Shown here: positions 10,892 to 39,989 of the stretch, in pieces
Position numbering within the stretch: position 1 is the first letter of the stretch
How the letters are laid out: the number at the start of each line of letters is the position of its first letter
NCBI GenBank assembly: GCA_965237415.1
Contig: CBDEFM010000002.1
Span: forward strand, 2,656,001 to 2,720,000
Direction of reading: 5' to 3'
DNA length: 64,000 nucleotides
From: Alphaproteobacteria bacterium
GTDB lineage: Bacteria; Pseudomonadota; Alphaproteobacteria; UBA828
Notes under the pieces: generated by a model
Databases searched by the model: none
What the model saw: the letters and a program-made list of their open reading frames with translations, nothing else
Told to the model about the DNA's origin: nothing
Translations under genes and position numbers: made by a program

Positions 10892-11268
10892 CTCCCAGCC
10901 CTCTGCGGTTCGGCGCCGGCCCGCCACCGATCGAGGGTGGGCAGCCGCCAGTGCGCCGCCGCTCAGGGAGATAATGGGTCCGAATAGGCCTGAATTCCAG
11001 CTCTTCCTGTATGTCGGAAGGTGTTATTTGGTATGCCGCCGGACAATGGGGTGGACGCCAATGCAATTCCGGCACGTCCGAAGTGCCGGGCGGGCCGAAC
11101 GTTGGGCCGAGACGCGCAGCCCGGGGAAACTGGGGCTCCCAGCGTATGGCAGACGCCGCGCCGCGCCATCGTGTGGCAAATGCAGCCGGTTCGATCGCCC
11201 CGGCCTGACTAGGTGGAAATCGTTCGCGCGTGGTATAGGCGCGCGCCATCTTCAAAGGGGGGAACGCG

Positions 11269-11721
11269 GTGGAATTGAGCACCGAACGGCGTGACGGCGT
11301 GTTGTTGGCGAACGTGAGCGGGCGGATCGATCCGAAAAGCGCCGGGGCGCTCGAGACGGCGATCACCGGTGCGCTCCAGAACGGCGACCGCGCCGTGATC
11401 CTGGATTTCGAGCAACTCGTCTATATCGGCAACAGCGGCATTCGCGCGCTTCGAGTCATCGCCAGGATCCTTCGCGATCGTGATGCAGCCTTGGTCATTT
11501 GCTCGCCGCAGGGTGTCGTCGCCGCGGTCTTCTCGGGGAGCGGTGTGGACACGCTCATCACGGTCGACCCGACCAGGGCCGCCGCCTTTGAGGCCCTCAA
11601 CACCCGACCAGGTGCCGCCCTCTTCTCGGCCGCCCGCTCCGCGACGGATGCCGAGCCCGCCACGATGCGGGGGTGTATGGCACCGGACGACCAGCGCTTC
11701 CTCCATACCACTCGCGCATAG
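11269..11721 (+). CDS. STAS-domain anti-sigma-factor antagonist
   Basis: VSGRID...VILDFEQLVYIGNSGIRAL STAS pattern. Confidence 0.8.
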   Translation: MELSTERRDGVLLANVSGRIDPKSAGALETAITGALQNGDRAVILDFEQLVYIGNSGIRALRVIARILRDRDAALVICSPQGVVAAVFSGSGVDTLITVDPTRAAAFEALNTRPGAALFSAARSATDAEPATMRGCMAPDDQRFLHTTRA

Positions 11722-16061: not shown

Positions 16062-17120
16062 CTAGAGGTTCTTCGCGAACTCTCTATTCGCGGCCGGTAT
16101 CTCGGGGACCGTGCCTATGTAGGCGTGGCGGGACATGTCGGGCGAGTACTTGCTCGCCGACGGACGGCGGCCGAGCGCCTCCGCCATGCTGCGGATGTGA
16201 TGGGGTGCCGCGCCGCAACAGACCCCGAGATAGTTGACGCCGAGCGCCTGTGCCTGCCTTGTGAATTCCGAGATCTCGTAGCGGTTGCAGGCGAGGTTGT
16301 CGAGCGCGGTGGGGAAGGCGCGTCCCTCCGGCAGGCAGGCGCAATCCGGGTCGCTGAGCGACATGAAGGTCGGCTCGTCGGCGCGGGTGCGGTAGGCCAC
16401 CGGCAGCGCCGAGACGTGGCAGCTCACCGCCTCGCGGATGGCCCCCAACAGCGGCAGCATGGTCGCCGGGCCGCGCGCGCAGTTGAGCCCGACGACATCG
16501 GCGCCCGCGTCTTCCAGGCGCTTGCAGGCATCGGCCGGGGTCAGGCCCTCGCGGGTGTGCGGGTCGCGGAAGATGGCGAGGTTGATCACCGCGGGCAGGC
16601 CTGCCGCCTTGATCGCTGCGAGCGCGAGCAGGGCCTCGCTCACGTAGCCGATGGTCTCGGCGACGATGAAGTCCACGCCCTCGTCCACGGCCCAACCCAC
16701 CTGCTCGTCGAACATGGCACGCACCGTCCGCGCGGACTCAGGATCGCCGTCCACGAAAATGTTGGAGTTGCACACATTGCCGGCGACCAGCGCGCCGCCC
16801 TCTTGCGCCACCACCCGCGCGAGGCGGATCGCGGTGCGGTTCATTCTTTCGAGCCCATCTTCCTTGCCGATCAGCCTGAGCTTCTCCCGATGGGCGTAGT
16901 AGGTGAAGGCGAGCATGACGTCGGAGCCAGCGCGCAGGAAGTCCCGGTGCAGCCGTATCACCGCATCGGGGTGTTCGAGCACCGCCTCGGGCACGTAGGG
17001 GCCGGCGGTGACATAGCCCGCGCGCTCGAGCTCGAACAAATAGCCCTCGGCGCAAATGACCGGTCCCGCTTCGAGCCGTTCAAGAAGGCCCGGCGCTGCC
17101 GCCGCAACAGGGTCAGTCAT
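16062..17120 (-). CDS. Homocysteine S-methyltransferase (BHMT-like), paralog 2
   Basis: ICAEGYLFELERAGY, AFTYY, zinc ligands GLNC and GVCCG; true ATG at 17120 after GGAG. Confidence 0.9.
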   Translation of the reverse strand: MTDPVAAAAPGLLERLEAGPVICAEGYLFELERAGYVTAGPYVPEAVLEHPDAVIRLHRDFLRAGSDVMLAFTYYAHREKLRLIGKEDGLERMNRTAIRLARVVAQEGGALVAGNVCNSNIFVDGDPESARTVRAMFDEQVGWAVDEGVDFIVAETIGYVSEALLALAAIKAAGLPAVINLAIFRDPHTREGLTPADACKRLEDAGADVVGLNCARGPATMLPLLGAIREAVSCHVSALPVAYRTRADEPTFMSLSDPDCACLPEGRAFPTALDNLACNRYEISEFTRQAQALGVNYLGVCCGAAPHHIRSMAEALGRRPSASKYSPDMSRHAYIGTVPEIPAANREFAKNL

Positions 17121-17185
17121 GCAAGCATTCTCCTTAGTTCGCGCTGGCGGTGCGGCTGAGCGTCTCCCCTGAGCCCCGATCAGCG

Positions 17186-18244
17186 CTATAGGTGCTTCGA
17201 GAACGCCTTGTATTTGGACGGCACCTTCTCGGACGTGCCGTAAAAGGCGTGCGTGGTCATGTCGGGCGAGTACTTGCTCGCCGGCGGGCGGCGGCCGAGC
17301 GCTTCCGCCACGGCGCGGATGTGGTGGGGACCGGCGCCGCAGCAGACCCCGAGATAGTTCACGCCGAGCGCCTGAGCCTCCCTGGTGAACTCCTCGATCT
17401 CGTAGCGGTTGACGGTGAAGGGATCGAGCGCGGTCGGGAAGGGGCGCCCATCCGGCAGACAGCCGCAACCGGGATCGCTGAGCGACTGGAAGGTCGGCTC
17501 GTCGGCACTGGTGCGGTAGGCCACCGGGAGCGCCGCGACGTGGCAGCTCACCGCCTCGCGGATGGGGCCCAGCAGCGGCAGCATGGAGGCAGGGCCGCGG
17601 GCGCAGTTGAGCCCGATCACGTCGGCGCCCGCGTCCTCCAGCCGCTTGCCCGCTTCGGCCATGCTCAATCCATCCCGCGTGTGCGGCTCGCGGTGGACGG
17701 CGAGGTTGATCACCGCGGTCTGGCCGGCCGCCTTGATCGCTTCCAGTGCGAGCAGGGCCTCGCCGACAAAGGAGATGGTCTCGGCCACGATGAAATCCAC
17801 GCCCTCGTCGACGGCCCAGGCCACCTGCTCGTCGAACATGGCGCGCACTTCCCGTGCGGACTCGGCGTCGCCGTCCACGAAGATGTTGGAATTGCACACG
17901 TTGCCCGCGACCAGCGCATTGCCTTCCTGCGCTGCTTCCCGCGCGAGGCGGAGCGCGGTGCGGTTGATCTCCTCGAGCGCGCCTTCCTTGCCGATCACCC
18001 GGAGCTTCTCTCGATGGGCGTAGTAGGTGAAGGCCAGCATGACGTCCGAGCCCGCATGCAGGAAGTCGCGGTGCAATTGGGCCACGACCTCCGGGTGGTC
18101 CAGAACAGCCTCCGGCACATAGGCCCCGGCGGAGAGATAGCCGCGGCGCTCGATCTCGAACAGATAGCCCTCGGCGCAAATGACCGGCCCTGCCGCCAGC
18201 CGCTTGAGAAGACCTGGTCCGCCAGCCACCGTGGCGTCAGTCAT
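17186..18244 (-). CDS. Homocysteine S-methyltransferase (BHMT-like), paralog 1
   Basis: Same motifs and same length (352 aa) as 16062-17120. Confidence 0.9.
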   Translation of the reverse strand: MTDATVAGGPGLLKRLAAGPVICAEGYLFEIERRGYLSAGAYVPEAVLDHPEVVAQLHRDFLHAGSDVMLAFTYYAHREKLRVIGKEGALEEINRTALRLAREAAQEGNALVAGNVCNSNIFVDGDAESAREVRAMFDEQVAWAVDEGVDFIVAETISFVGEALLALEAIKAAGQTAVINLAVHREPHTRDGLSMAEAGKRLEDAGADVIGLNCARGPASMLPLLGPIREAVSCHVAALPVAYRTSADEPTFQSLSDPGCGCLPDGRPFPTALDPFTVNRYEIEEFTREAQALGVNYLGVCCGAGPHHIRAVAEALGRRPPASKYSPDMTTHAFYGTSEKVPSKYKAFSKHL

Positions 18245-27111: not shown

Positions 27112-28650
27112 TTAGGCGAGATCGCCCACCGCCTTGACCCGCACCCGGCAGGCGGCGCCCGGCAGGTAGGCGAGGGGGATCTCCTCGACCTCGATGATCT
27201 CGATGCTGGCGGGCTCGGCGCCGGCATCGACCGCCTTGGCCTGCGCCTCGTCCTTGGCCTGGGCGATGGCGTTCTCCCGCCCCTCCTGCTCATAGGAGAA
27301 GACGCGGTCGACCTCGCCGCCAACCTGGGCGATGGCGGCGCCGATGGCGTTGGCGACCGCCGAATGCTCGGGAATGCTGAGGGTCGAAACGCCGGCGAGT
27401 TCGCGCTCCATCAGGATGCTGCCGCCGCCCACCAGGATCGCAGGCACCGGCTCTGCGCTCGTCTTCATACGATCGATCGCGTCCTCCACCATAACGTGGA
27501 TTTTCTCGAGCGCACGCCCCACGGCCGCGCCGTCCAGCCCGGCGACGGCCTCACGGTTGCCGATATCGGCGAGGCCCGCCGCGACGGCGATGTCGGTGGC
27601 GGTGAGCGTGCGGCCGCCGAAGACCAGCGCCTTCTCGGTGAGCTCGAAGCCGACGGAATCGGGGCCGACTGTGACCGGATCGTCGCCCCGCACCAGGCTG
27701 CCGCCGCCCAGCCCGATCGCCAGCACGTCGGGCATGCGGAAATTGGTCCGCACCCCGCCGACATCGACGGCAACCGCCGATTCCCGCGGGAAGCCCCGGG
27801 CCAGCACGCCGACATCGGTGGTGGTGCCGCCGATATCGACCACTACGGCGTTCTCCTGGTCGGAGAGGAAGGCCGCGCCCCGCATGCTGTTGGTGGGGCC
27901 GGAGGCGAAGGTCAGCACCGGATAGCGCTCGACGTAAGCCGCGCTCATCAGAGTGCCGTCGTTCTGGCTAATGAAGAAGGGGGCCTCGATTGAAAGCTCC
28001 TTCAACGCCTCGCTAAAGGAGCCCACCACCTTGGCGGAGAGCGAGACCAGGGCTGCGTTCATCACCGCCGCGTTCTCGCGCTCGATCAGCCCCACCCGGC
28101 CAATCTCGTTGGAGAGCGTGATCTGGGCATCCGGGTGTTCGGCCCGGATGATCTCGGCGGCCCGGTCCTCCTGAGCGCTGTTGAGGGGGGCGAAGACCGA
28201 GGAAATTGCGATCGATTCCAGTCCCTTGGCGGCAATGTCCCGGGCGATGCCGGCGATCTCGGCTTCGTCGAGGGGCGAGATCTCGCGCCCGTCCACCTCG
28301 TAGCCGCCCTTCGCCATGTAGACGTGGCGCCCGATGACATCTACCAGGTCGCGTGGCCAGTCGATCAGGGGGTTGAGGCTCTCGGTCGCCGGCAGCGCGA
28401 GACGAACGATGGCCACCGGCACCAGGCGCCGGCGCTCGACGATCGCGTTGGTGAACTGGGTGGTGCCGATCATTACCCCGGCGATGGCTCCGGGTGCGAT
28501 CGCCGATTGGGCCATCACGCCCTCGATCGCAGCCACCACGCCTGCGCCCACATCGGCGGTGGTCGGTGCCTTGATGGAAGCGACGACCGTCGCGCCGTCC
28601 ATCAGCACCGCATCGGTGTTGGTTCCGCCGACATCGACACCGATTCTCAT
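27112..28650 (-). CDS. Hydantoinase/oxoprolinase A-family protein
   Basis: IGVDVGGTNTDA, GTTQFTNA, ERENA, SGPTNS, DIGGTTTD, GLGGGS, ANAIGAA. Confidence 0.92.
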   Translation of the reverse strand: MRIGVDVGGTNTDAVLMDGATVVASIKAPTTADVGAGVVAAIEGVMAQSAIAPGAIAGVMIGTTQFTNAIVERRRLVPVAIVRLALPATESLNPLIDWPRDLVDVIGRHVYMAKGGYEVDGREISPLDEAEIAGIARDIAAKGLESIAISSVFAPLNSAQEDRAAEIIRAEHPDAQITLSNEIGRVGLIERENAAVMNAALVSLSAKVVGSFSEALKELSIEAPFFISQNDGTLMSAAYVERYPVLTFASGPTNSMRGAAFLSDQENAVVVDIGGTTTDVGVLARGFPRESAVAVDVGGVRTNFRMPDVLAIGLGGGSLVRGDDPVTVGPDSVGFELTEKALVFGGRTLTATDIAVAAGLADIGNREAVAGLDGAAVGRALEKIHVMVEDAIDRMKTSAEPVPAILVGGGSILMERELAGVSTLSIPEHSAVANAIGAAIAQVGGEVDRVFSYEQEGRENAIAQAKDEAQAKAVDAGAEPASIEIIEVEEIPLAYLPGAACRVRVKAVGDLA

Positions 28651-28685
28651 GCCCACGCCCTCCGAATCGTGCGGGCGCATCCTAG

Positions 28686-28710: not shown

Positions 28711-28851
28711 TCTGCACGGCACTTTCCGGCCGGCATGATCCACGTCATACCGGAGGCTGCGATTGCTCGCCTAAACTGCACAATCCCGAACTGGCACGGT
28801 CCTCGGGCCTAGGTGCCAGGCAACGGGCGCTGCGGAGAAGGAGGCTTGACC

Positions 28852-29673
28852 ATGGCGTACAAGGAAATCGTCGTGCACGTGGGTCCCGACGAGCGGTCGG
28901 CGGTGCGGCTCGATGCCGCAGTCGAGCTGGCCGAACGCCACGAAGGCAAGGTGACCGGCGTCTACGTGCTGTCTCGTCTCATCGTCCCCGGTTTCGCCAG
29001 CTTCGAGCTCTCCACGGAGGTCTACAAGCGGCTGGATACCGAACAGCGTGCGCTTGCCGAAGAAGCCGAGCGGCAGTTCGCAGAGCGGATGGCGAAGTCG
29101 ACGGCGCCTTCCGAATGGCGGCTCACGACGGGCGACCCCGTCGATGCGCTCACGACGAGCGCGCACTACGCCGACATCGCCGTCGTCGGCCAGACCGACC
29201 CCGACGATGCCAACAGCCTCTCCGGGCTGGCGGACAGCGTGGTGCTGGGCGCGGGTGGCCCCGTGCTGGTCTGGCCCTACGCCGGCTCGTTCAGCGCCAA
29301 CGCGGAGACGGTTGTGCTCGCCTGGAACAGCACCCGCGAGGCGAAGCGTGCGCTCTCCGACGCGCTGCCCATCATGCAGCAGGCGAGCAGGGTTATCGTC
29401 CTCGGCATCGACACCGGCGACGGCAAGCACATAGCGGGTGCCGACGTCAGCGCATACCTGGCACGGCACGGGGTCAGCGCAGAGGCCCGGCACACGGTCA
29501 GCTCGTCGGACCTCGGCGCCAGCGACGCCCTCCTCTCGGAGATCAGCGATCTCGGGGCCGGCCTCCTCGTCATGGGCGGCTACGGCCATCACCGCATGCG
29601 GGAGGTTCTGCTGGGCGGCGTGACCCGCGACATCCTGCGCCAGATGACCGTGCCGGTCGTGATGTCGCATTAG
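28852..29673 (+). CDS. Universal stress protein (tandem UspA domains)
   Basis: YKEIVVHV, AWNSTREA, LVMGGYGH...LGGVTR...PVVMSH; GGAGG RBS. Confidence 0.92.
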   Translation: MAYKEIVVHVGPDERSAVRLDAAVELAERHEGKVTGVYVLSRLIVPGFASFELSTEVYKRLDTEQRALAEEAERQFAERMAKSTAPSEWRLTTGDPVDALTTSAHYADIAVVGQTDPDDANSLSGLADSVVLGAGGPVLVWPYAGSFSANAETVVLAWNSTREAKRALSDALPIMQQASRVIVLGIDTGDGKHIAGADVSAYLARHGVSAEARHTVSSSDLGASDALLSEISDLGAGLLVMGGYGHHRMREVLLGGVTRDILRQMTVPVVMSH

Positions 29674-29697: not shown

Positions 29698-30600
29698 CTA
29701 GTAGTCGCGAAGCTCGGAGGCTTCGGTTGCGGCCTTCGCGCCGCCCCGCATCCGCCCGCTGGTCCAGACGCCGAGGATCGTCGCGAGATAGGGCAGCGAG
29801 AGCAGCACGTCATGCGGAATGCTCGCGCCGAAGAGAAGCTGCAGCCTGATCCCCGCGACGCCCACCAGGCTGAAGAACATCGCGGCGAAGGCGGCGCCGA
29901 TGGGGTGGGACGCGCCGAAGATGACGGCGGCGAAGCTCATGAAGCCCCGGCCCGCCGTCATGTTCTGCGCGAAGATGTGGAGGCCGCCTGCCGCAAGCTC
30001 GCCGCCGCCGATGGCGCAGAGAACACCGCCTGCCGCGAGCGCGATGAGGCGCGCGCGGGCCGGATTGGTGCCCACGCTGCGCGCTGCTAACGGATGCTCG
30101 CCTGCGGCGGCGAGCCGCAGGCCGAAGCGCGTGCGCCGCAGCAGCACCCACATGCCCCAGACGACGAAGGGCATCATCAGCACGAAGATGGAGAGTCCGC
30201 CATAGGTGCCAAAGGCATCGCCGAGCCGGGGCACGCCGAAGGGCGCGGTCACCGCGGCGAGGCTGCCGAAGAGGGCCTGCACGGCGAGCGCCGTGCCACC
30301 GATCCCAAGTCCCGTGAGGCCGAGTCCGGCGATGATCGGATTGGCGCCCAGCTTCTCGATCACGAACCAGAGCAGGACCGAGGCGGCGACGCAGAGCACG
30401 CAAGCGATCGCGATGGCAGCCGGGAACGAGCCGGTGAGCACGATGCCGAGGATCGTCGCGCAGGCGCCGATGATCATTACGCCTTCGAGGCCGAGGTGCC
30501 AGACGCCCGCGCGCTGCGCGATGACGCCTGCCATGGTGACGTAGACCAGCGGGGTGCCGGAGCGCAGGATCGCCACCATGAGCTCGTGAAACTCGGTCAT
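29698..30600 (-). CDS. ABC permease (nucleoside/BMP-type, second subunit)
   Basis: TPL, GLEG, RTRFGLRLAAAGEHP, GRGF, LPYLATI. Confidence 0.88.
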   Translation of the reverse strand: MTEFHELMVAILRSGTPLVYVTMAGVIAQRAGVWHLGLEGVMIIGACATILGIVLTGSFPAAIAIACVLCVAASVLLWFVIEKLGANPIIAGLGLTGLGIGGTALAVQALFGSLAAVTAPFGVPRLGDAFGTYGGLSIFVLMMPFVVWGMWVLLRRTRFGLRLAAAGEHPLAARSVGTNPARARLIALAAGGVLCAIGGGELAAGGLHIFAQNMTAGRGFMSFAAVIFGASHPIGAAFAAMFFSLVGVAGIRLQLLFGASIPHDVLLSLPYLATILGVWTSGRMRGGAKAATEASELRDY

Positions 30601-31634
30601 GTGGGCAGCCTGGCTGCCCGCAGGAGGCGGTCCAACAATCCTGACTTCGCGGTGATGAACAGCGCGACGGAGGCGTTGAAGATGTCGATGGCGGCGGCCG
30701 GAAGGCCGGCCAGGATCGGCAGATAGAGCGCGGCGTACGCAAGGCCGCCAAAGAAAATGCTGACGACCGCCGTCGCGAGCACCGAGAGGTTGGCGACCAG
30801 CGCGATCAGCACAGCGGTAAAGCCATGGCCCGGCAGAAATCCGCTGGCGATGCGCCCGGTCGGGCCGAGCAACTCGATGGTGCCGGCAAGCCCGGCGAGC
30901 GCCCCTGAGATCAGGAAGCTCGAAAGACCCAGCGTCCAGAGCCGCGCGCCCTGAAACCGCACCATGGTCGGATTGCGCCCGGCGAGGCTCGCGAGCATGC
31001 CGAAGGGCGTGCGGTTGACCAGCACCCACATGGTGAGCGCGACGACGGCGGCGATACCGATGATGGCGGGCGAGATGCCCTGGGAATCGCTGATGCGGTA
31101 GAGCGCCGGCAGCATTGGGCTCGCTGCCTGCTGGCCGGTGCCGGACGGGTCCTTGAGCGGACCAGAGGTGACGTAGACCAGCACAAGGGCTGCGATGAAG
31201 TTGCCCATGAGCGTCGTGATGACCTCGTCGGTGCCCGAGCGGAGCCTGAGATAGCCCGGCCAGAGCGCCCAGAGCGCGCCGCCGGCCATGCCGGCGAGGA
31301 AGGACGCCGGTAGCACCACGGCTGCCGACGCACCGCCGAGCAGATCCGTGACGAAGGCGGCCGAGATGGCGCCGATATAGAACTGGCCCTGCGCGCCGAT
31401 GTTGAAGAAACCGCAGCGGAAGGAGATCGCGACGCCCGTTGCGGTGATGAAGAGCGGCAAGGCCCAGCGCAGGCTCTGCGCCCAGCCACCCGCGCGCAGG
31501 AAGGCGCCTTCGACGATGGCCTCGAACATTAGCAGGGCCGAGTAGCCCGCAAGCTCGAAGATGACGCCGCAGAGTGCGAGCGCGAGCACGATGAAGGCGA
31601 GTGTGCGGATCACCGCGCCCGCGCGGATGTTCAT
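30597..31634 (-). CDS. ABC permease (nucleoside/BMP-type, first subunit)
   Basis: FNIGAQGQ, EVITTLM.NF, SGALAGLAG, GF.AVLIAL; alternative GTG start 31643. Confidence 0.88.
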   Translation of the reverse strand: MNIRAGAVIRTLAFIVLALALCGVIFELAGYSALLMFEAIVEGAFLRAGGWAQSLRWALPLFITATGVAISFRCGFFNIGAQGQFYIGAISAAFVTDLLGGASAAVVLPASFLAGMAGGALWALWPGYLRLRSGTDEVITTLMGNFIAALVLVYVTSGPLKDPSGTGQQAASPMLPALYRISDSQGISPAIIGIAAVVALTMWVLVNRTPFGMLASLAGRNPTMVRFQGARLWTLGLSSFLISGALAGLAGTIELLGPTGRIASGFLPGHGFTAVLIALVANLSVLATAVVSIFFGGLAYAALYLPILAGLPAAAIDIFNASVALFITAKSGLLDRLLRAARLPT

Positions 31635-31639
31635 GCCGC

Positions 31640-33220
31640 TCACGCGGACGCCCCGGTCATGGCGCGTCCCACCGCCGCGATGTCATAGGGCGGTACGAAC
31701 TCGGCGACGATACGGCCCGAGAGCATGACCACAAGGCGGTGGCCGATGTCGAACAGCTCGTCGAGATCGGACGAGATCAGCAGCACGCCGCAGCCCTGCC
31801 CGGCCGCCTCGCGGAGCGCCGACCAGACGAAGTCCGTGGCGCCGATATCGAGCCCGCGCGCCGGCTGGGCTGCGATGATAAGGCGCGCATCCCTGTCGAT
31901 CTCGCGCGCGAGGATGATTTTTTGGGCGTTGCCGCCGGAGAGCGCGCCGGCGTTCTGGCTCGCCGACGCGTAACGCACCCCCCAGGCCTTGAGGGACTCG
32001 TCGCATCGGCGCTGCAAGGCGGCCGGATCGACGAGGCTGAACAGCGGCCTCTGAAGCAGGTCGCGGACAGACCAGTTCTCCCAAAGCGCGCTGGTGAGGC
32101 TCAGGCCCTCGCTGTTGCGCTCGAACGGGATGACCCGCAAGCCCAGCGCGCGGCGTTGGGCGGGGCTCGCGCGTCGCGCGTCTGTGCCGCTCAGGTGGAT
32201 GTCGCCGCCCGTGACATCGGCGAGGCCGGCGACCGCCTTCACCAGAGTCCGCTGGCCGTTGCCCTGGACCCCGGCGACGCCCACGATCTCCCCCGGCGCG
32301 ACACTGAGGGAGACGCGGTCCAGAGCCGGTTCCTCCGGCTCCTTGGCCGTGCTGACCGATGCGAGCGCGAGGACCGCCCCGCGCGAGGCGGGGGGTGGCT
32401 CCTCGTGCGTGTCGCGCGCCCCCCCACCGCTAAACGGCGCCGCCCCGACGAGGGCGACGGTATCGTCGGCGTCGGCTGAGGCGGCCGTGGCCCCGCCGAT
32501 AATCGTCTCGGCGATACTCGTCTCGTCGGCCCCGGCCCGGGGGAGGGGGCCTGCGACCAGCCGGCCGCCGCGCAGGACCGAGATCGTGTCGGCGACCGCC
32601 AGCACCTCGCGGATCTTGTGCAGGATCAGGATCACCGTGACCCCGTGCCGCCTGAGCCCGCGAATGCGCTCGAACAGCGCCTCGATGCCGGAAGGCGGGA
32701 GCACCGCCGTTGGCTCGTCCAGGATCAGCACGCGTGCGTCGGTGACCAGCGCACGGGCGATCTCCACGCCCTGCTGCGCCTCGACCGGCAGGTCGCGGAT
32801 GCGTCGGCGCGGATCGACGTCGAGGTCGAGGGCGGCGAGACGTTCGCGGCAGCGCCTCAGGAGCTGGCGCCGGCCGTAGAGGCCGATACCGCCGCTGGCG
32901 CCGAACTCCAGCGCCTCCGCCACGGTGAAGGAGGGGGGCAGCGCGAAGCTCTGGTGAACCAGCTCGACCCCGGCCGCCCGCGCGCCGGCGACACGGCCGA
33001 GGCGCAGCGGGCGCCCGTCGATGTGGAGCGAGCCGGCGTCGGGCCGGATAAGACCGGCCGCGACGCGGGCGAAGGTCGTCTTTCCGGCGCCGTTTTGGCC
33101 CACCACGGCGTGAATGGCGCCGCGCTCGAAGGCGATCGAGAGCTCGGCGAGTGCCGTGACCTCGCCGTATGTGACGCGAATCCCGCGGCAGTGGAGGGCC
33201 GGCGGGTCCGCAGCAATCAT
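31640..33220 (-). CDS. ABC ATP-binding protein, two-domain carbohydrate/nucleoside (CUT2) type
   Basis: GQNGAGKT, LILDEPTAVL, GVQGNGQ, LSGGNAQK, GLDIGA; start approximate. Confidence 0.9.
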   Translation of the reverse strand: MIAADPPALHCRGIRVTYGEVTALAELSIAFERGAIHAVVGQNGAGKTTFARVAAGLIRPDAGSLHIDGRPLRLGRVAGARAAGVELVHQSFALPPSFTVAEALEFGASGGIGLYGRRQLLRRCRERLAALDLDVDPRRRIRDLPVEAQQGVEIARALVTDARVLILDEPTAVLPPSGIEALFERIRGLRRHGVTVILILHKIREVLAVADTISVLRGGRLVAGPLPRAGADETSIAETIIGGATAASADADDTVALVGAAPFSGGGARDTHEEPPPASRGAVLALASVSTAKEPEEPALDRVSLSVAPGEIVGVAGVQGNGQRTLVKAVAGLADVTGGDIHLSGTDARRASPAQRRALGLRVIPFERNSEGLSLTSALWENWSVRDLLQRPLFSLVDPAALQRRCDESLKAWGVRYASASQNAGALSGGNAQKIILAREIDRDARLIIAAQPARGLDIGATDFVWSALREAAGQGCGVLLISSDLDELFDIGHRLVVMLSGRIVAEFVPPYDIAAVGRAMTGASA

Positions 33221-33254
33221 ATGTTCCGAGAGGGTTTCCCCCCTATGGCCTGGA

Positions 33255-34328
33255 TCAGAGTTCCGTGTTGAACGGCACCGCGACCGATCCGTCGAGGATA
33301 CCCGCGCGTGCCGCCTCGACATGCGGCCACGCGTCTGCGGACCTTGCGACGATAGCCGCCGGCCCCTGCTCCTGATAGAGCGGCGACAAGAGGAAGTCGA
33401 TCACCCCGCTGCCGAGGCCGGTCGGCACGTGCCGGCCGCCTTGCCAATCCGCGCCGAGCGCGGCGCTCGCCTCGTTGTGGAGCGACTGGCCGAAGTGCAG
33501 GCTCACGACCCCGATCACCGAGGCGGGACCCAGCGGGTATTGAGCCGGGTCGAGCGCGCTCACCATGGCGCCCTCGCGCTCGTTGGCCGCCTGGATGATG
33601 CCGCCGTCGGTCGCGGCGGAATCGGTCTGGATGTAGTCGATCCCGTCCAGGAACATCTGGCTCGCGATCTCGTACCCCTTCGCCGGGTCCTGGAAAGAGC
33701 CTGCGAAGGCGGCGGTGACGGTCGCCTCCGGGTTGACCGCGTGAACGCCGGCCTGGAGCGCATTGAAGTCGGCGTTGAGCGGCGGAATGCTGATGCCGCC
33801 GATATAGCCGATCTGCTTCGACTGCGAGACGTGGGCGGCGAAGATGCCGGACAGGTAGCAGCCGAGATAGTAGTCGTAGGAGACCGTCACCAGGTTGGGG
33901 ATCGGCGGCTCGACCGCATCGCCGAAGAGCTGGATCCACTTGGTCTCGGGATAAAGCGGGGCCACCGCCTTGAAGGCCTCGGAGATGACCGGGAAGGTGC
34001 CCAGCACGATGGAAGCGCCGGCGTCGCCGAGGATTCTGAGCACGGTCTCGTAGGTCGCCGGGTCCTGGGCGTAGATGGCGCGGGTCTCGAATCCCTCCGC
34101 TTCGGAGAGCTGCTGCAGGCGCCCCATCATGGAATCGATGGGGCCGCTGTCGCCCGCCGCCTGGGTGTGCACGAGCGCGACCAGGCCGGTCCCTGCGCGC
34201 GCGGAGAGCGAAAACGCACCGCCCGCGCCGACAACTGCCGAGACTCCTGCAGTGACCGCCAGAAATCGGCGGCGGCTGACGAGGGCACGCATCGCACTCC
34301 GATCCTTCAACGTCGGCTTGTTCGACAT
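33255..34328 (-). CDS. BMP-family (nucleoside-type) substrate-binding protein, Tat signal
   Basis: SRRRFL twin-arginine motif; IGYIGG, GSFQDPAKG typical of BMP/PnrA-like proteins. Confidence 0.85.
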   Translation of the reverse strand: MSNKPTLKDRSAMRALVSRRRFLAVTAGVSAVVGAGGAFSLSARAGTGLVALVHTQAAGDSGPIDSMMGRLQQLSEAEGFETRAIYAQDPATYETVLRILGDAGASIVLGTFPVISEAFKAVAPLYPETKWIQLFGDAVEPPIPNLVTVSYDYYLGCYLSGIFAAHVSQSKQIGYIGGISIPPLNADFNALQAGVHAVNPEATVTAAFAGSFQDPAKGYEIASQMFLDGIDYIQTDSAATDGGIIQAANEREGAMVSALDPAQYPLGPASVIGVVSLHFGQSLHNEASAALGADWQGGRHVPTGLGSGVIDFLLSPLYQEQGPAAIVARSADAWPHVEAARAGILDGSVAVPFNTEL

Positions 34329-34419: not shown

Positions 34420-34746
34420 TCATGCGCCGATCGGCGGCGAGCACGGCGCCGGGTTCATCACCATCACGTCTTGTTCCTGGATCGCGTCGAGCGCCCACAC
34501 CGACTGGATGAAGGCCTGCCACGCGGGGTCCACGCTCATCGCGGCCCGCCGCCGCTCGCGGTCGGCCAGGCTCTCGTAGGCCCAGATCAGGACGATCCGG
34601 TGCAGCCGGCCGATCTCAGACACGTAGAGGCCCACGAAGTGACCGAGATGGCGCTTCTGGATCGGCAGGCCTTCCGTCTCGTAACGCTTCAGCCAGCCGC
34701 CCACCGTGCCGGGACGGAACGTGTAGGTCCGATGCTCGACGATCAT
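34420..34746 (-). CDS. NIPSNAP-family protein
   Basis: MIVEHRTYTFRPG...IWAYESLADRERRRAAM..DPAW...PCSP; ATGA overlap with the GMC gene. Confidence 0.88.
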   Translation of the reverse strand: MIVEHRTYTFRPGTVGGWLKRYETEGLPIQKRHLGHFVGLYVSEIGRLHRIVLIWAYESLADRERRRAAMSVDPAWQAFIQSVWALDAIQEQDVMVMNPAPCSPPIGA

Positions 34747-36404
34747 TCTCGGTATTCCTCGGATAGTGCGTCTGCGGGCGGCGCGGCCCCGCGAATGAAC
34801 TCGGCCGCCTTCTCGCCGATCATGATGGCGGGCGCGTTGGTGTTGCCGCTGACAATGACGGGCATGACGGACGCGTCGGCGACCCGGAGCCCTTCGATGC
34901 CGTGGACGGCGAGCCGGGCGTCCACCACCGCCATCGGGTCCCAGCCCATGCGGCAGGTGCCGACGGGATGAAAGGTCGTCATCGCATTGGCGCGGAGCCA
35001 CGCGGTGAGCTCTTTGTCGCTCTGCATATCGCCGCCGGGCGTGAGCTCGCGGCCGCGAAAGGCGGCGAAGGCCGGCTGCCCGATGACGTCGCGGACCATG
35101 CGGATGCCCGTGATCGTTGTCCGGCAATCGGCTTCGTCCTGCAGATAGTTGGGCTGGATCAGCGGCGGCGCGGCGGGGTCGGCGGAGTTAAGACCGATCC
35201 AGCCTCGGCTCTCGGGGTTGAGCGGGCCCACGCGCAGGCTGAATCCGTGGGTGTCCTCGACCGACGCCTTCTCGAAGGGTGTCGGCAGGTGCAGGTTCGC
35301 CGTCTTCTCCAGCGCCGGCATGAAGTGCACCTGGATATCCGGCGCCAACAGGTCCGCCCGGCTCTTGAGGAAGGCGCCGGCTTCGTAGGGGAAGGTCGTC
35401 GCCACCCCGCGGCCGAAGAGCATCCCCTCGGCCACCGAGCGGATCATTCTGTCGGCCCGGAGGTCGCGGTAGAGGGTGACCGGCTTGGTGCAGGCGTAGG
35501 CGAGGACGCAGTCGACGTGATCCTGGAGGTTCCGGCCGACGCCGGGGAGCTCGTGCACCACGGGGATGCCGTGCCGCTTCAACTCTTCGCCGGGCCCGAT
35601 GCCCGAGAGCATGAGGAGCTGGGGCGAGTTGACTGTGCCGGCGCAGAGGATGACCTCGCGCTCCGCGTGGATCGTGCGCGTTGCGCTTCCCTCCGCCACC
35701 TCGACTCCGGTCGCACGGCCGCCGTCCAAGACCACGCGGCGCACCAGGCAGCCGGTGGCGATCGCCAAATTGCGCCGATGCCGGATGGGGCGCAGAAAGG
35801 CGGCGGAGGTGGAGCAACGTTTGCCCCGCCTGATGGTGAAGTCGTAGCGCCCAAAACCCTGCTGCTCCGCACCGTTGAAGTCGTCGTTGACGGGCCAGCC
35901 GGCCTGACGGCCCGCCTCGACAAAAACGTCGAACAGCGGGTTCGCACCGCGTGCGCGGCAGACCGTGAGCTCGCCGCCTGTCCCGTGATAGGCGCCGTCG
36001 CGCTCCACATGCCCTTCGGAGCGGCAAAAGGCCGGCAGCAGGTCATCGTAGGACCAGCCGCCAAGGCCCATTTGCGCCCATCGGTCATAGTCGTGGCGGT
36101 TGCCGCGCACGTAGATCATGCCGTTGATGGTCGAGGAGCCGCCCAGCACCTTGCCGCGCGGCCAGTAGAGCGCGCGGCCGCCCAGGCTCGGCACCGGCTC
36201 GGTGTGGTAGCGCCAGTTGTAGATGCCGGAGTGGAACAGCCGACCCATCAGCATGGGCAGTCGGAACAGAGGGTTGCGGTCCTTGCCGCCGGCCTCGATG
36301 AGGAGGACCGAACGCTCAGGGTCGGCCGAGAGCCTGTTGGCGAGCACGCATCCGGCGGAGCCCGCGCCGACGATGACGGAGTCGAAGAAGCGCCCGCGCG
36401 GCAT
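34743..36404 (-). CDS. GMC-family FAD oxidoreductase (choline dehydrogenase-like)
   Basis: GAGSAG, RGKVLGGSSTINGM.Y.RG, SPQLLMLSGIG, NLQDH, HPVGTCRMG, GNTNAP. Confidence 0.93.
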   Translation of the reverse strand: MPRGRFFDSVIVGAGSAGCVLANRLSADPERSVLLIEAGGKDRNPLFRLPMLMGRLFHSGIYNWRYHTEPVPSLGGRALYWPRGKVLGGSSTINGMIYVRGNRHDYDRWAQMGLGGWSYDDLLPAFCRSEGHVERDGAYHGTGGELTVCRARGANPLFDVFVEAGRQAGWPVNDDFNGAEQQGFGRYDFTIRRGKRCSTSAAFLRPIRHRRNLAIATGCLVRRVVLDGGRATGVEVAEGSATRTIHAEREVILCAGTVNSPQLLMLSGIGPGEELKRHGIPVVHELPGVGRNLQDHVDCVLAYACTKPVTLYRDLRADRMIRSVAEGMLFGRGVATTFPYEAGAFLKSRADLLAPDIQVHFMPALEKTANLHLPTPFEKASVEDTHGFSLRVGPLNPESRGWIGLNSADPAAPPLIQPNYLQDEADCRTTITGIRMVRDVIGQPAFAAFRGRELTPGGDMQSDKELTAWLRANAMTTFHPVGTCRMGWDPMAVVDARLAVHGIEGLRVADASVMPVIVSGNTNAPAIMIGEKAAEFIRGAAPPADALSEEYRE

Positions 36405-36407
36405 CGG

Positions 36408-37259
36408 CTACCAGTCCACCGGCGCCGCGCCCATGGCACGCAGCCGCCGGTTGCAGAGCGCGAACGGGTTCTCTTGCGCGAGGACCTCTCGGGCTTGGGC
36501 CGGGTGGGGGCGAAGGATGACGCGCTCGTCGCCTGCGTCGGACCCGCACAGCCCCGCCGTCCGGAGTGTCTCCACTGCCGCATCGCCGAAGCCCAGGATA
36601 ACGACGGGTGTGCCCCTCTCCGCGAGATGGGTGAGCACCCGGATCATCAAGGGGCGCCAGAGCGGCAGGTGGCCCTGCACCTGGTGCGGATCGCCCTCGC
36701 GCAGGAAGCGCGTGAGCGTGAGCGAGGCATTCAGGAGCAGCACGCCGGAGGCGACCCAGCGATCGGCCAGCGCCTCGGGCGCCTCCAGATCGACCGCGCC
36801 CTGTTCGATGGCCGCGAGAGTCGCGGGCCACTGCGCGACGCCTTGGGCGTGTCGCGCCTCGCCGGGCCGCGCGGCGAGGATCATCTGGATGAACGCGCGG
36901 ACGCTCGGGGAGAACATCTTGTCGAGCTCGCGCCAGCGCGCGACGTTGCCGGCCTCGAAGGCCCGGCCGGTGGCGAAGGCGGGGCAGGGATAAGGGTCCT
37001 GCCCCAGGATCACGCAGCGCACATCCCCGGGCGCGATCCCATCGAAGGCGCGGAGCATGTGCGCGCCTGCCGGCGCGCCGGGGAAGACCATTCCGCGCCG
37101 AGCCGGGAAGATCGGCTCCCAGGGCTCCAATTCGAGCGTGGGGTCGACATCGTCGAATGCCAGCGAAACAGTGCGGACGACAGCGCGCCAGGGAGGATCG
37201 ATATCCTCGCGCCAGCCGCGCAGCGTGTCCTGGAGCGCCGCTTGCAGTGGCATGACCAT
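36408..37259 (-). CDS. Uracil-DNA glycosylase family-1-like protein (divergent DNA-binding loops)
   Basis: VILGQDPYP, ATGRAF, GVLLLNASLT, HPA; start at ATG 37259 or 37253. Confidence 0.8.
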   Translation of the reverse strand: MVMPLQAALQDTLRGWREDIDPPWRAVVRTVSLAFDDVDPTLELEPWEPIFPARRGMVFPGAPAGAHMLRAFDGIAPGDVRCVILGQDPYPCPAFATGRAFEAGNVARWRELDKMFSPSVRAFIQMILAARPGEARHAQGVAQWPATLAAIEQGAVDLEAPEALADRWVASGVLLLNASLTLTRFLREGDPHQVQGHLPLWRPLMIRVLTHLAERGTPVVILGFGDAAVETLRTAGLCGSDAGDERVILRPHPAQAREVLAQENPFALCNRRLRAMGAAPVDW

Positions 37260-37288
37260 GGCGTCCGCTTGCTCCCGCCCGCCCCAAA

Positions 37289-37344
37289 AACCTGACATGC
37301 GTGTCAGGTTCAACGATTCGGCAACCGGACACGCGCGTCAAGTT
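37289..37344. promoter_or_regulatory. Two related 22-bp inverted repeats (candidate TetR operators)
   Basis: AACCTGACAtgcgTGTCAGGTT (37289-37310) and AACCGGACAcgcgCGTCAAGTT (37323-37344) in the divergent gap. Confidence 0.7.
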
Positions 37345-37425: not shown

Positions 37426-38094
37426 ATGAGCATGACGAAGACGATGCGGGCAGAAGCGGGAAACGACGCCCCGGAGCCGAGAATCCGGGCCAGGAACAAG
37501 GAGCGGATCCTGCGCGCCGCCGTCGATCTCTTCGCCGACAAGAGCTTCCACGGCACGCACGTCAAGGAGATCGCGCAGGCGAGCGGCCTGCCGAAGACCA
37601 ACGTCTACTACTACTTCCCCACCAAGGAGAGCATCTACACGGCCGTGATCGAGCGGCTGATCGAGGGCTGGGACCGCGCCTTCGAGCATATCGTGCCCGA
37701 GCGCGAGCCGCGCGAGGCCATTGCCGCCTACATCCGTGCGAAGCTGGAATATTCGCGCCGCCACGCCGCAGAATCCCGCTTCTTCGCCAACGAGATCCTG
37801 CGCGGCGCTCAGTTTCTGGAGCGGCGCCAGCGCCAGCATATCCGCGACGTGACCACCCAACGCGCCCATGTGGTGGAGGAATGGATCCGGCGGGGGCAGA
37901 TGGCACCGGTGGATGCGCGCCACTTCTTCATCATGCTGTGGTCGGCGACCCAGTTCTATGCGGATTTCGGGGCGCTGGCCGCCGATGTGCTGGAGAAGCG
38001 GAGTCTCACGAAGAAGGATTTCGACGCCGCGGCGGAGACGATGACACGGGTTATCCTGGACGGGTGCTGCGCTCCGCCGCGGTCTTTGCGTTGA
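37426..38094 (+). CDS. TetR-family regulator, RutR-like
   Basis: IRARNKERILRAA...GLPKTNVYYYF; YIRAKLEYSR, SRFFANEI, IMLWSATQFYADF resemble the RutR C-terminal domain. Confidence 0.88.
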   Translation: MSMTKTMRAEAGNDAPEPRIRARNKERILRAAVDLFADKSFHGTHVKEIAQASGLPKTNVYYYFPTKESIYTAVIERLIEGWDRAFEHIVPEREPREAIAAYIRAKLEYSRRHAAESRFFANEILRGAQFLERRQRQHIRDVTTQRAHVVEEWIRRGQMAPVDARHFFIMLWSATQFYADFGALAADVLEKRSLTKKDFDAAAETMTRVILDGCCAPPRSLR

Positions 38095-38299: not shown

Positions 38300-38878
38300 A
38301 TGCCGCTCTACGAGAGCACGTTTATCGCGCGTCCCGATATCTCGTCCCAACAGGTGGACGGCCTTGCCGAGCAGTTTCGCGAGATTGTGACGGAGGCCGG
38401 TGGCGAGGTCGCCAAGACCGAATATTGGGGGCTGCGCAGCCTTGCGTATCGCATCAAGAAGAACCGCAAGGGCCACTACTATTTCATGAACATCGATGCG
38501 CCGGCGGAAGCGATCAACGCCATGGAGCACACGATGCGCATCAACGAGGACGTCATTCGCTACCTCACGGTGCGGGTCGAGGAGCACGACCCCAACCCGG
38601 CGCCGCTCACGCAGTCGCGCGGACGCGGACGCGATGGGCGCGGCGGTCGCGGTGGACGGTGGGAGAGCCGCGGCGGCGAAGGACGGCGCCGGGAGGACGG
38701 CGGCGAGCGCGGCGAACGCAGGGAACGTGATGGGCCCCGTGAGCGCCAAGACGCCGCGCCGGCGGACGCCGCACCGGCAGATGCGGGCGCTGAGCCCAGC
38801 GCGGCCGCCCCAGTCGGCGATGCGGTAGGCGGCAGCGAGGCAGGCAGCGGCGGCGCCGAGGAGAAGAGCGATGGCTGA
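38300..38878 (+). CDS. rpsF: 30S ribosomal protein S6 with long C-terminal tail
   Basis: [33 protein letters not shown]. Confidence 0.97.
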
Positions 38879-39257
38879 AGGCGAACGGACCGAGAGCGGC
38901 CCGCCACCCGCCGGTGCAAGTCGGCCGGAGCCGAGCGGCGGCGGGCGCAGCCAGCATCCCTTTGGCGGCCCGCGCCACGGCGGCGGGCATGGCGGCGGTC
39001 GCGGCGGCGGGGGCGTGCCCGTGGTCTCGTTCCCCAGGCGCCCGTTCTTCCGCCGCAAGAAGTCCTGCCCCTTCAGTGGGGCCAATGCGCCGAAGATCGA
39101 CTATCGCGACGTGAAGCTGCTTCAGCGCTTCCTCTCCGAGCGGGGCAAGATCGTGCCGAGCCGCATCACCGCAGTGTCGGCCAAGAAGCAGCGGGAGCTC
39201 GCACGCGCGATCAAGCGTGCGCGTCATCTGGCGCTGCTGCCCTACGTCATCAAATAG
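38871..39257 (+). CDS. rpsR: 30S ribosomal protein S18 with Gly-rich N-terminal extension
   Basis: [36 protein letters not shown]. Confidence 0.97.
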
Positions 39258-39326
39258 CCAGGTAGCCGGTCTTCGCCCGGTACCGGCGCTTCGGGCCGGG
39301 CGATCCGCCAAGCGGAGAACAAGGGC

Positions 39327-39989
39327 ATGGAAATCATCTTGCTCGAGAGGATCGAGAAGCTCGGCGGGATGGGCGATATCGTCGGGGTGAAGGACGGCTA
39401 TGCCCGCAACTTCTTGCTTCCCCGCAAGAAGGCTCTCCGCGCCACGCCCGAGAACATGGAGCGCTTCGAGCGCGAGCGCGAAGCGCTGGAGAATCTGAAC
39501 AGCGACCGGCGCGATGCCGCGAGCTCGGCCGCGACACGGTTGGAGGGGGAGAGCATCGTCCTCATCCGCCAGGCAAGCGACACGCTGCAACTCTACGGCT
39601 CCGTCAACGCGCGCGATGTCGCCGAGGCGATGGCCGAGCGGGGCGCCGAGGTCAGGCGCCAGCAGGTGCGTTTGGATCGCCCCATCAAGTCGCTCGGCAT
39701 GCATGACGTGCGCATCGCGCTCCACCCGGAGGTGATGGTGACGGTCAAGGTCAATGTCGCCCGCTCGCCCGAGGAAGCGAAGATCCAGGCTCGAGGCGGC
39801 ACGATCCTCGACGAGGCTGAGGATTTGGCGGAGGAGGCTGCAGAGGGCGATACGCCAAAGTGGGAGCACCCGGCGAACGAAGACGGTGATGCGCCGGATG
39901 CCGCGGCGGCCACAGATGAGGCCACCGAAACCGCCGATGCGGGCGTCGGCACCGACGGCGGCGCAGACGAAGACCTGCCCAGCGCCTAG
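39327..39989 (+). CDS. rplI: 50S ribosomal protein L9
   Basis: VKDGYARNFLLP, LYGSV, LHPEV, VNVARS; acidic tail. Confidence 0.97.
   Translation: MEIILLERIEKLGGMGDIVGVKDGYARNFLLPRKKALRATPENMERFEREREALENLNSDRRDAASSAATRLEGESIVLIRQASDTLQLYGSVNARDVAEAMAERGAEVRRQQVRLDRPIKSLGMHDVRIALHPEVMVTVKVNVARSPEEAKIQARGGTILDEAEDLAEEAAEGDTPKWEHPANEDGDAPDAAAATDEATETADAGVGTDGGADEDLPSA

Follow-up and report, generated by a model that had tools for sequence, protein, structure and literature searches.

We propose that UDGL, a uracil-DNA glycosylase-like protein encoded in a 64,000-nucleotide stretch of DNA from an Alphaproteobacteria bacterium (assembly GCA_965237415.1, contig CBDEFM010000002.1, positions 2,656,001 to 2,720,000; hereafter the window), may be a uracil-releasing N-glycosidase that acts on an imported pyrimidine nucleoside- or nucleotide-like compound, a proposal to which we give an even chance. 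The uracil-DNA glycosylase (UDG) superfamily is treated as a group of DNA, and occasionally RNA, base-excision enzymes. In the window, the UDGL gene heads an operon in which it is followed by genes for a GMC oxidoreductase and a NIPSNAP-domain protein (together with UDGL, the trio) and for an ABC importer, and which diverges from a gene for a RutR-like regulator. Whether the subfamily of UDGLs linked to this trio was recruited from DNA repair to small-molecule metabolism, and so would have a non-DNA substrate, we likewise regard as evenly balanced.

We favour a metabolic function because the coupling of UDGL to the GMC and NIPSNAP genes is near-obligate, because an importer and a deaminase-type gene accompany them and because the repressor is of RutR type with conserved operators. 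Further grounds are the acidic shift of the subfamily, a conserved aspartate at the site of the DNA-intercalating wedge, a sporadic, cassette-like distribution and the three basic UDGs that the genome also encodes.

Predicted fold and family assignment

The gene in question is the following.

36408..37259, minus strand: UNG-like gene (UDGL), 283 amino acids, operon gene 1; pocket and catalytic residues kept, Gly-Ser and Leu loops replaced; isoelectric point (pI) 5.7

The longest open reading frame (ORF) spans 36408..37313 on the minus strand and begins at an upstream TTG; in homologues and in database entry P0002 the start is the ATG at 37259, which gives the 283-residue protein. Its sequence scores 17.4 bits against the Pfam UDG model (PF03167), below the gathering cut-off of 24.3, and is far below the curated ung cut-offs, with 46-66 bits on the ung equivalog models (NCBIfam TIGR00628 / PRK05254; cut-offs 143-237) and 62 bits on one curated ung model with a cut-off of 185.75. 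A phmmer search of the PDB returned 39 matches, all of them uracil-DNA glycosylases, headed by Mycobacterium tuberculosis Ung (1.5e-12) and then 5x3g (6.6e-12), and a profile of the family detects UNG homology in the PDB at 1e-27. The ESM Atlas gave matches only to clusters named 'uracil-DNA glycosylase family protein', and PHROGs a single weak match to a family of unknown function.

An AlphaFold2 model of UDGL, built from a 66-sequence alignment, has a mean predicted local distance difference test score of 96.1. Using Foldseek, the UNG of Nitratifractor salsuginis (5x3g) was the top match to this model and canonical UNGs came next, with a probability of 1.00 to UNGs. Superposition with VIA-align gave a Z of 21.7 to M. 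tuberculosis Ung (root-mean-square deviation 2.8 Å over 214 residues), 20.9 to human UNG-DNA complexes and 18.5 to 5x3g, the last being the longest alignment (225 of 249 residues). Taken over the canonical UNGs of E. coli, M. tuberculosis and human, Z is 19-21.7 and the alignments cover 207-219 of about 225 residues. On the predicted structure, then, UDGL is a member of the UDG superfamily with the UNG fold, although it falls below the Pfam cut-off by sequence; the model contains the whole UNG core and, unlike canonical UNG, about 60 additional residues, made up of an N-terminal insertion and three helices. The ORF does not occur by chance, since it has 228 homologous clusters (50% identity) at E<=1e-10, a GC content at third codon positions of 0.86 and a confident UNG-fold prediction. 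The search that gave these clusters covered 1.84 billion cluster representatives, of which 1104 reached E<=1e-3 and 80 reached E<=1e-30.

Catalytic residues and DNA-contact loops

In canonical UNG the PPS loop pinches the DNA backbone and the serine of the Gly-Ser loop holds it. We mapped the residues of UDGL in a MAFFT alignment with E. coli Ung and 78 family members, and invariance was counted over 30 UDGLs linked to the trio. An initial annotation, made by eye, had claimed that the catalytic and pocket residues are kept, that the Gly-Ser loop WGS has become FGD and that the Leu-intercalation loop HPSPLS has become HPAQAR. The alignment bears this out, with GQDPY corresponding to E. coli D64/Y66, the Phe of ATGRAFE to F77, LLLN to N123 and HP to H187, and with a Leu loop that is 2-3 residues shorter. 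The helical insert that had been noted ahead of WVASG is present in the AlphaFold2 model as helices H109-114, H135-138 and H141-152. A further insertion, at RRGMVFPGAPAG, had also been claimed; extra N-terminal residues do exist, but their exact site is ambiguous, MAFFT placing them earlier. The statement that the DNA-gripping loops are lost holds for the Gly-Ser serine, the motif-B serine and the intercalating leucine, and not for the third pinch motif, PPS, which survives as SPS; UDGL has lost three of the four UNG backbone-contact features examined.

Motif A, GQDPY, lies at residues 86-90 and is invariant in all 30 subfamily members, as are the individual pocket and catalytic residues Q87, D88, Y90, F101, N177 and H252. 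Because these six positions do not vary, glycosidase chemistry is plausibly retained in UDGL. The SPS motif occupies residues 117-119, and S119 is invariant in 30/30 and kept in at least 90% of the wider family. R99, R121 and D190-P191-H192-Q193 are likewise invariant in the 30, and E48, R54, H67, D73 and H197 are further invariant polar residues of the subfamily. By comparison with canonical UNG, DPYH is replaced by DPYP, and Arg99 and Glu102, both within ATGRAFE, are new invariant residues.

The replaced loops are less uniform than the pocket. HPAQAR itself is a minority variant: among the 120 closest homologues the motif could be located in 114, where it ends in D 97 times, in Q 10 times, in R 4 times and in E 3 times. 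The motif-B consensus of the subfamily is HPAxAD, a shorter loop without Leu or Ser. The Asp of FGD is frequent and not fixed, being D, A, E, N or Q in the subfamily and any residue in the wider family, in which the Gly-Ser serine is not conserved and the residues after His-Pro vary in both sequence and length. Positions specific to the subfamily are D257, at the tip of the former Leu loop (at least 90% of the subfamily, 2% of the rest of the family), the DPHQ motif (190-193), F224 and C269. A paralogous UDGL in the same genome keeps the loop-tip Asp that is Arg in the UDGL of the window, and the two may differ in function.

From the altered loops the initial annotation had gone on to predict that bases could no longer be flipped out of duplex DNA. 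On the loops alone that step fails, because BdiUng (Blr0248) of Bradyrhizobium diazoefficiens, in which PPS is VGT, GS is GG and there is no classical motif B, excises uracil from both single-stranded and double-stranded DNA and is insensitive to Ugi, according to an excerpt of PMC5449639. The broader idea of a lost DNA activity does not follow from the loops by themselves; the acidic subfamily, the loop-tip Asp and the metabolic operon do, however, point in the same direction. Loss of DNA binding by UDGL is something that we infer.

An acidic clade within a wider family

The family to which UDGL belongs has a signature that is absent from canonical UNGs, consisting of ATGRAFE, invariant W16, W24, P52, T97 and G98, and DPYP in place of DPYH. 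In a quick IQ-TREE tree of 108 sequences the canonical UNGs stand apart from the ATGRAFE family (support 99), within which the trio-carrying UDGLs form one clade (Shimodaira-Hasegawa-like approximate likelihood ratio test 100).

This clade is acidic. The median pI of the trio subfamily is 5.35, with a net charge of -8 (range -17 to +2), as against a median pI of 8.5 and a net charge of +2 for 61 other family representatives and 8.6 and +2 for 69 canonical UNGs from the loci retrieved. The same division is seen within the genome, where UDGL (pI 5.7) and its paralogue (5.2) can be compared with three other UDG-superfamily proteins of pI 8.7, 9.3 and 9.7. The genes for these three, a family-4-like one, one of 220 amino acids and a MUG-like one, all score above the Pfam cut-off; no canonical ung was found in the genome, in that no TIGR00628 match exceeded its cut-off.

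UDGL is rare, occurring in 3/401 sampled genomes of the class and 2/401 of the phylum. Within its own order the gene is present in 20/49 genomes; by genus, it is found in 18 of 20 of the window's own genus, in the only genome of a second and in none of 12 others. A scan of genome contigs with the family profile (pattern GQDPY) gave about 6 family members among 80 loci, the rest being mostly canonical UNGs. In a scan of viral contigs 6 of the 80 loci fit a loose ATGxxFE pattern, of which about 4 are ATGR[AS]FE, and no member of the trio subfamily was among the 80.

At 29-39% identity, the more remote family members lie in unrelated surroundings, namely amidohydrolase and S8 peptidase genes, a prophage head module, or HNH, nucleotidyltransferase and WYL genes, and in two of their genomes a canonical ung was also found. 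One such member, 36% identical and with the ATGRAFE motif, lies in a Paracoccus albicereus contig (L012:10001-10798), on the opposite strand between the lambda-type portal and major capsid protein E genes of a prophage; this genome also has a canonical ung. Another, 29% identical, lies in a Roseobacter sp. MED193 contig (L013:8820-12627) between an HNH endonuclease gene and a nucleotidyltransferase/WYL-domain pair, in a neighbourhood that looks mobile or defence-like.

A conserved cassette with GMC and NIPSNAP genes

The genes that accompany UDGL in the window are as follows.

34743..36404, minus strand: GMC oxidoreductase (choline-dehydrogenase subfamily), 553 amino acids, Pfam GMC_oxred_N/C; start 3 nt past the UDGL stop

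34420..34746, minus strand: NIPSNAP-domain protein, 108 amino acids, Pfam PF07978 at 5.5e-29; its ATG overlaps the GMC stop (ATGA)

33255..34328, minus strand: BMP/PnrA-like ABC substrate-binding protein, Pfam PF02608 at 3e-33; in the PDB it is related to basic membrane proteins and to lipoproteins of TmpC/PnrA type

31640..33322, minus strand: two-domain ABC transporter ATPase (ORF limits; true start probably further downstream)

29698..31643, minus strand: two ABC permease genes, ORFs 30597..31643 and 29698..31029 (ORF limits)

37426..38094, plus strand: RutR-like TetR-family regulator, divergent from UDGL, with a YcdC/RutR C-terminal domain

The GMC protein scores 670 bits on NF002550, above the cut-off of 605, and its best PDB match is 9lq0 (1.8e-140), while the relatives of the NIPSNAP protein in the PDB are only structural-genomics entries of unknown function.

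In the order of the window the GMC gene is directly downstream of UDGL in 23/24 loci (one truncated), and in the 24th it is NIPSNAP that directly follows. A metagenome scan added 41 loci with UDGLs 48-78% identical to the query, which include near-duplicates (for example L215/L216, L198/199/201 and L224/226/229), so that the following counts, made only where flanking sequence suffices (for GMC, at least 500 bp downstream), overstate independence. GMC is the next gene after UDGL in 30/31 (the exception being L208) and NIPSNAP the next in 26/26; the BMP binding protein follows in 18/23, the ABC ATPase in 18/21 and a TRZ/ATZ-type amidohydrolase, whose nearest solved relatives are methylthioadenosine/S-adenosylhomocysteine (MTA/SAH) deaminase and 8-oxoguanine deaminase, in 13/17, and a divergent RutR-like gene is present in 25/33. 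The metagenome loci still cover a GC content of 0.54-0.71, and the entire cassette is found in two other alphaproteobacterial families (L114 and L116; UDGL 65-66% identical). Across loci, identity to the query is 48-78% for UDGL, 61-85% for GMC and 52-93% for NIPSNAP, UDGL being the least conserved of the trio in every locus. The amidohydrolase of the other cassettes has its nearest homologue in the genome of the window at 49% identity, located elsewhere.

Two loci in the genus of the window (L095 and L094) depart from the standard arrangement, one genome having no GMC, with NIPSNAP next to UDGL, and the other matching only GMC residues 1-192; both are natural deletion variants of the trio. 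In two metagenome loci the trio is kept and the ABC importer is swapped, for a TonB-dependent receptor, a pyrimidine-nucleoside phosphorylase and a luciferase-like monooxygenase in L206:4273-12312, and for DUF480 and DUF3604 proteins in L198:46-5255.

A second, diverged cassette lies outside the window in the same genome (G000:C2:2124000-2142000, L008), with UDGL, GMC and NIPSNAP that are 74%, 85% and 92% identical to those of the window (L008 6232-9110), a GMC fragment at 10927-11449 and a RutR-like gene (90%) 8 kb off at 17023-17685; no BMP transporter adjoins it. It looks like a segmental duplication that was later split by inserted DNA.

A complex prediction for GMC, NIPSNAP and UDGL returned a score of 0.00, which gives no answer and is evidence neither way. 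Two metatranscriptomic runs contain short contigs of low depth that cover parts of the locus, one of them 216 nt long (37058-37273, 1 difference). Such libraries can contain DNA, and among the records of these runs no contig spans two genes of the locus by 31 nt or more in each.

Just past the end of the operon are a hydantoinase/oxoprolinase-A-like gene (27112-28680, minus strand) and a tandem universal-stress-protein gene (28813-29673, plus strand), neither of which is conserved with the cassette in other loci. On the other side, an rpsF-rpsR-rplI operon (38300-39989) adjoins the regulator gene; the C-terminal tail of its S6 ORF is long and rich in Arg/Gly/Glu, and its S18 ORF, as listed, has a Gly-rich N-terminal extension.

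A RutR-like regulator and its operators

The divergent regulator can be aligned end to end with E. coli RutR structures (1e-38) and scores 171.9 bits against TIGR03613, the RutR equivalog model, below the cut-off of 368. By these sequence scores it is RutR-like, and not a RutR equivalog. The genome has only two RutR-like genes, each beside a UDGL copy, and no RutA above cut-off. The E. coli regulon comprises rutABCDEFG, whereas here the regulator adjoins the UDGL-GMC-NIPSNAP-ABC operon. The text available from a study of the RutR regulon in Proteobacteria (PMC5343134) carries no association with a UDGL gene.

In E. coli RutR uracil is bound by L74, W77, L78 and W167, and L78, which would clash with a C5 substituent, sets the specificity for uracil (PMC4325133, in part). 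In the UDGL regulators both stacking Trp residues, W77 and W167, are kept and L74 is I, L or F, but the equivalent of L78 is Asp in 6/6 genome and 25/25 metagenome orthologues (31/31). Because the leucine that gates C5 is Asp in these proteins, their effector is probably a pyrimidine, but not plain uracil.

Two operators are predicted between the divergent genes.

37293..37306, unstranded: predicted operator box 1, TGACATGCGTGTCA, a RUT-box-like palindrome at the centre of the inverted repeat 37286-37310

37327..37340, unstranded: predicted operator box 2, GGACACGCGCGTCA, 34 bp from box 1

Boxes of the form TGAC-N6-GTCA occur in 19/19 UDGL-regulator intergenic regions, two in 15 of them and three in 4, with the main pair 34 bp apart, and they total 42 as against 1.3 in shuffles. 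Their half-sites match those of the 16-bp RUT box consensus (PMC2952853, in part).

Comparison with known glycosidases

Reportedly, the UNG of N. salsuginis (PDB 5x3g/5x3h) was described by Li et al. in 2017 as an 'unconventional family 1 UDG', a DNA glycosylase that is not inhibited by Ugi, and a salt-bridge network is also said to mark this type. UDGL shares with this best Foldseek match additional secondary structure within the UNG core, the sequence alignment between the two running through the helical insert, and both have an S-L-R motif after the PPS position. However, they are only about 25% identical, and the Nitratifractor enzyme has AIGYAF where UDGL has ATGRAFE. Whole-profile scores for Nitratifractor and canonical UNG are about equal (91 and 100 bits), while the C-terminal half of UDGL is nearer to canonical UNGs (4.9e-18) than to the Nitratifractor protein (2.5e-9).

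BdiUng resembles UDGL in having a family-1-like motif A, in having neither a classical motif B nor the GS serine and in coming from an alphaproteobacterium without canonical Ung. It differs in having GQDPA where UDGL has GQDPY, in a family-4-like overall fold with an extended protrusion and in its proven DNA activity (PMC5449639, in part). Membership of UDGL in the BdiUng family was considered and is ruled out by its GQDPY motif A and by the PDB sequence matches of UDGL and of its profile, among which there is no BdiUng chain.

Enzymes that free a base from nucleosides or nucleotides in salvage and catabolism are the nucleoside hydrolases and phosphorylases and the nucleotide N-glycosidases (IUNH, PyNP, LOG/PpnN, DNPH1). 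These would be functional analogues of the reaction proposed for UDGL, but their folds are unrelated to that of UDG, and we know of no UDG-fold enzyme in the release of bases from free nucleosides or nucleotides. In the main texts of the literature searched we found no report of a UDGL-GMC-NIPSNAP association or of a non-nucleic-acid substrate of a UDG-fold enzyme.

Proposed mechanism and alternative explanations

If UDGL does act in metabolism, the BMP-type ABC transporter would import a pyrimidine nucleoside- or nucleotide-like compound, which in many relatives may first be deaminated by the TRZ/ATZ-type amidohydrolase. UDGL would then split the N-glycosidic bond and free a uracil-type base, and the GMC flavoenzyme and NIPSNAP, which are translationally coupled, would act on the alcohol or sugar moiety, whether ahead of this cleavage or following it, the order of steps being a suggestion on our part. 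One speculative role for NIPSNAP would be a mutarotase- or isomerase-like one, between an inverting glycosidase and an oxidase. The operon would be turned on by a pyrimidine effector through the divergent RutR-like repressor, acting on its two RUT-box-like operators. In canonical UNG catalysis is assisted by the DNA phosphates, and we speculate that carboxylates of the enzyme (the loop-tip Asp, Asp226 and Glu102) could stand in for them; these residues fall within or next to motifs that in canonical UNG touch the DNA backbone or stack on the uracil. The full combination, in which UDGL would be the first UDG-superfamily enzyme to act on a free imported pyrimidine compound, with carboxylates replacing phosphates, in a fixed module with NIPSNAP and a GMC flavin oxidase and under a RutR-type repressor retuned to a different pyrimidine, is possible in our view but somewhat short of an even chance.

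Several points weigh against a metabolic substrate. To our knowledge no member of the UDG superfamily acts on a substrate other than nucleic acid, which sets the prior, and the Nitratifractor protein, as an unconventional UNG, is also said to be active on DNA. S119 and R121, of the loop that in UNG pinches the backbone, are invariant and would fit a DNA or oligonucleotide substrate equally, and the UDGL of the window has Arg at the loop-tip position where its subfamily has Asp. The pI of a whole protein is a rough proxy: the minimum among the 69 canonical UNGs is 5.19, and E. coli-type enzymes can be mildly acidic. The prophage-head and HNH/nucleotidyltransferase/WYL contexts of distant relatives are partly DNA-centred. 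The activity of BdiUng on DNA without the PPS, GS and motif-B features (PMC5449639, in part) bears on the same side.

The main rival view is that UDGL is an unconventional, Ugi-insensitive family-1-type DNA glycosylase, probably one that prefers single-stranded DNA because it has no wedge residue, which would be co-expressed with the genes for pyrimidine uptake and would remove uracil misincorporated when the pyrimidine pool rises. We consider this unlikely, though deserving of serious attention. The UNG homology is clear (1e-27 for the profile against the PDB, Z of about 21), the catalytic and pocket residues and the PPS-loop S119 are all invariant, the genome has no canonical ung by the TIGR00628 cut-off, control by a uracil-type regulator makes physiological sense and BdiUng offers a Ugi-resistant precedent on both forms of DNA. 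However, such an enzyme leaves no role for the GMC and NIPSNAP proteins, whose genes are nearly inseparable from UDGL (30/31 and 26/26) and translationally coupled to it. Moreover, the subfamily is acidic whereas every other UDG class compared is basic, an Asp is conserved at the tip of the former intercalation loop, repair of uracil in DNA is already covered by the three other UDG-superfamily genes and the distribution is sporadic and cassette-like.

An improbable alternative is that UDGL keeps the pocket without acting as a glycosidase, serving the GMC enzyme as a pyrimidine-binding subunit, as a scaffold or through some other chemistry on the uracil ring. The invariant polar residues beyond those of UNG catalysis (E48, R54, H67, D73, R99, R121, D190, H192, Q193, H197) are consistent with this, as is the position of UDGL as the least conserved protein of the trio, but the invariance of the catalytic Asp88 and His252 in 30/30 would not be expected of a mere binding protein. 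Brig1 is reportedly an anti-phage glycosylase that acts on modified phage bases, and a comparable function might be read from some distant family members that lie inside a prophage or next to HNH, nucleotidyltransferase and WYL genes and from the few viral-contig matches with an ATGR[AS]FE motif. We think this very improbable indeed for UDGL: PADLOC has no match for UDGL, GMC or NIPSNAP, and the trio lies in a context of transport and metabolism with a RutR-type repressor and not in a defence island. In UNG the Tyr of motif A gates C5, and the invariance of Tyr90 favours plain uracil over bulky modified bases.

Implications

Should UDGL instead act on DNA, an acidic UNG that Ugi does not inhibit and that engages its DNA substrate in a novel manner would still be of interest, though of less. 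The present analysis advises caution against annotating such genes as 'uracil-DNA glycosylase', or counting them as DNA-repair capacity in genomes without ung. If UDGL is the uracil-releasing N-glycosidase that we propose, it would illustrate how metabolism can take over a repair fold, and the combination of a UDG-like protein with GMC and NIPSNAP would constitute a previously unrecognised module for pyrimidine salvage or catabolism, which would also provide a first functional handle on the NIPSNAP proteins of bacteria.

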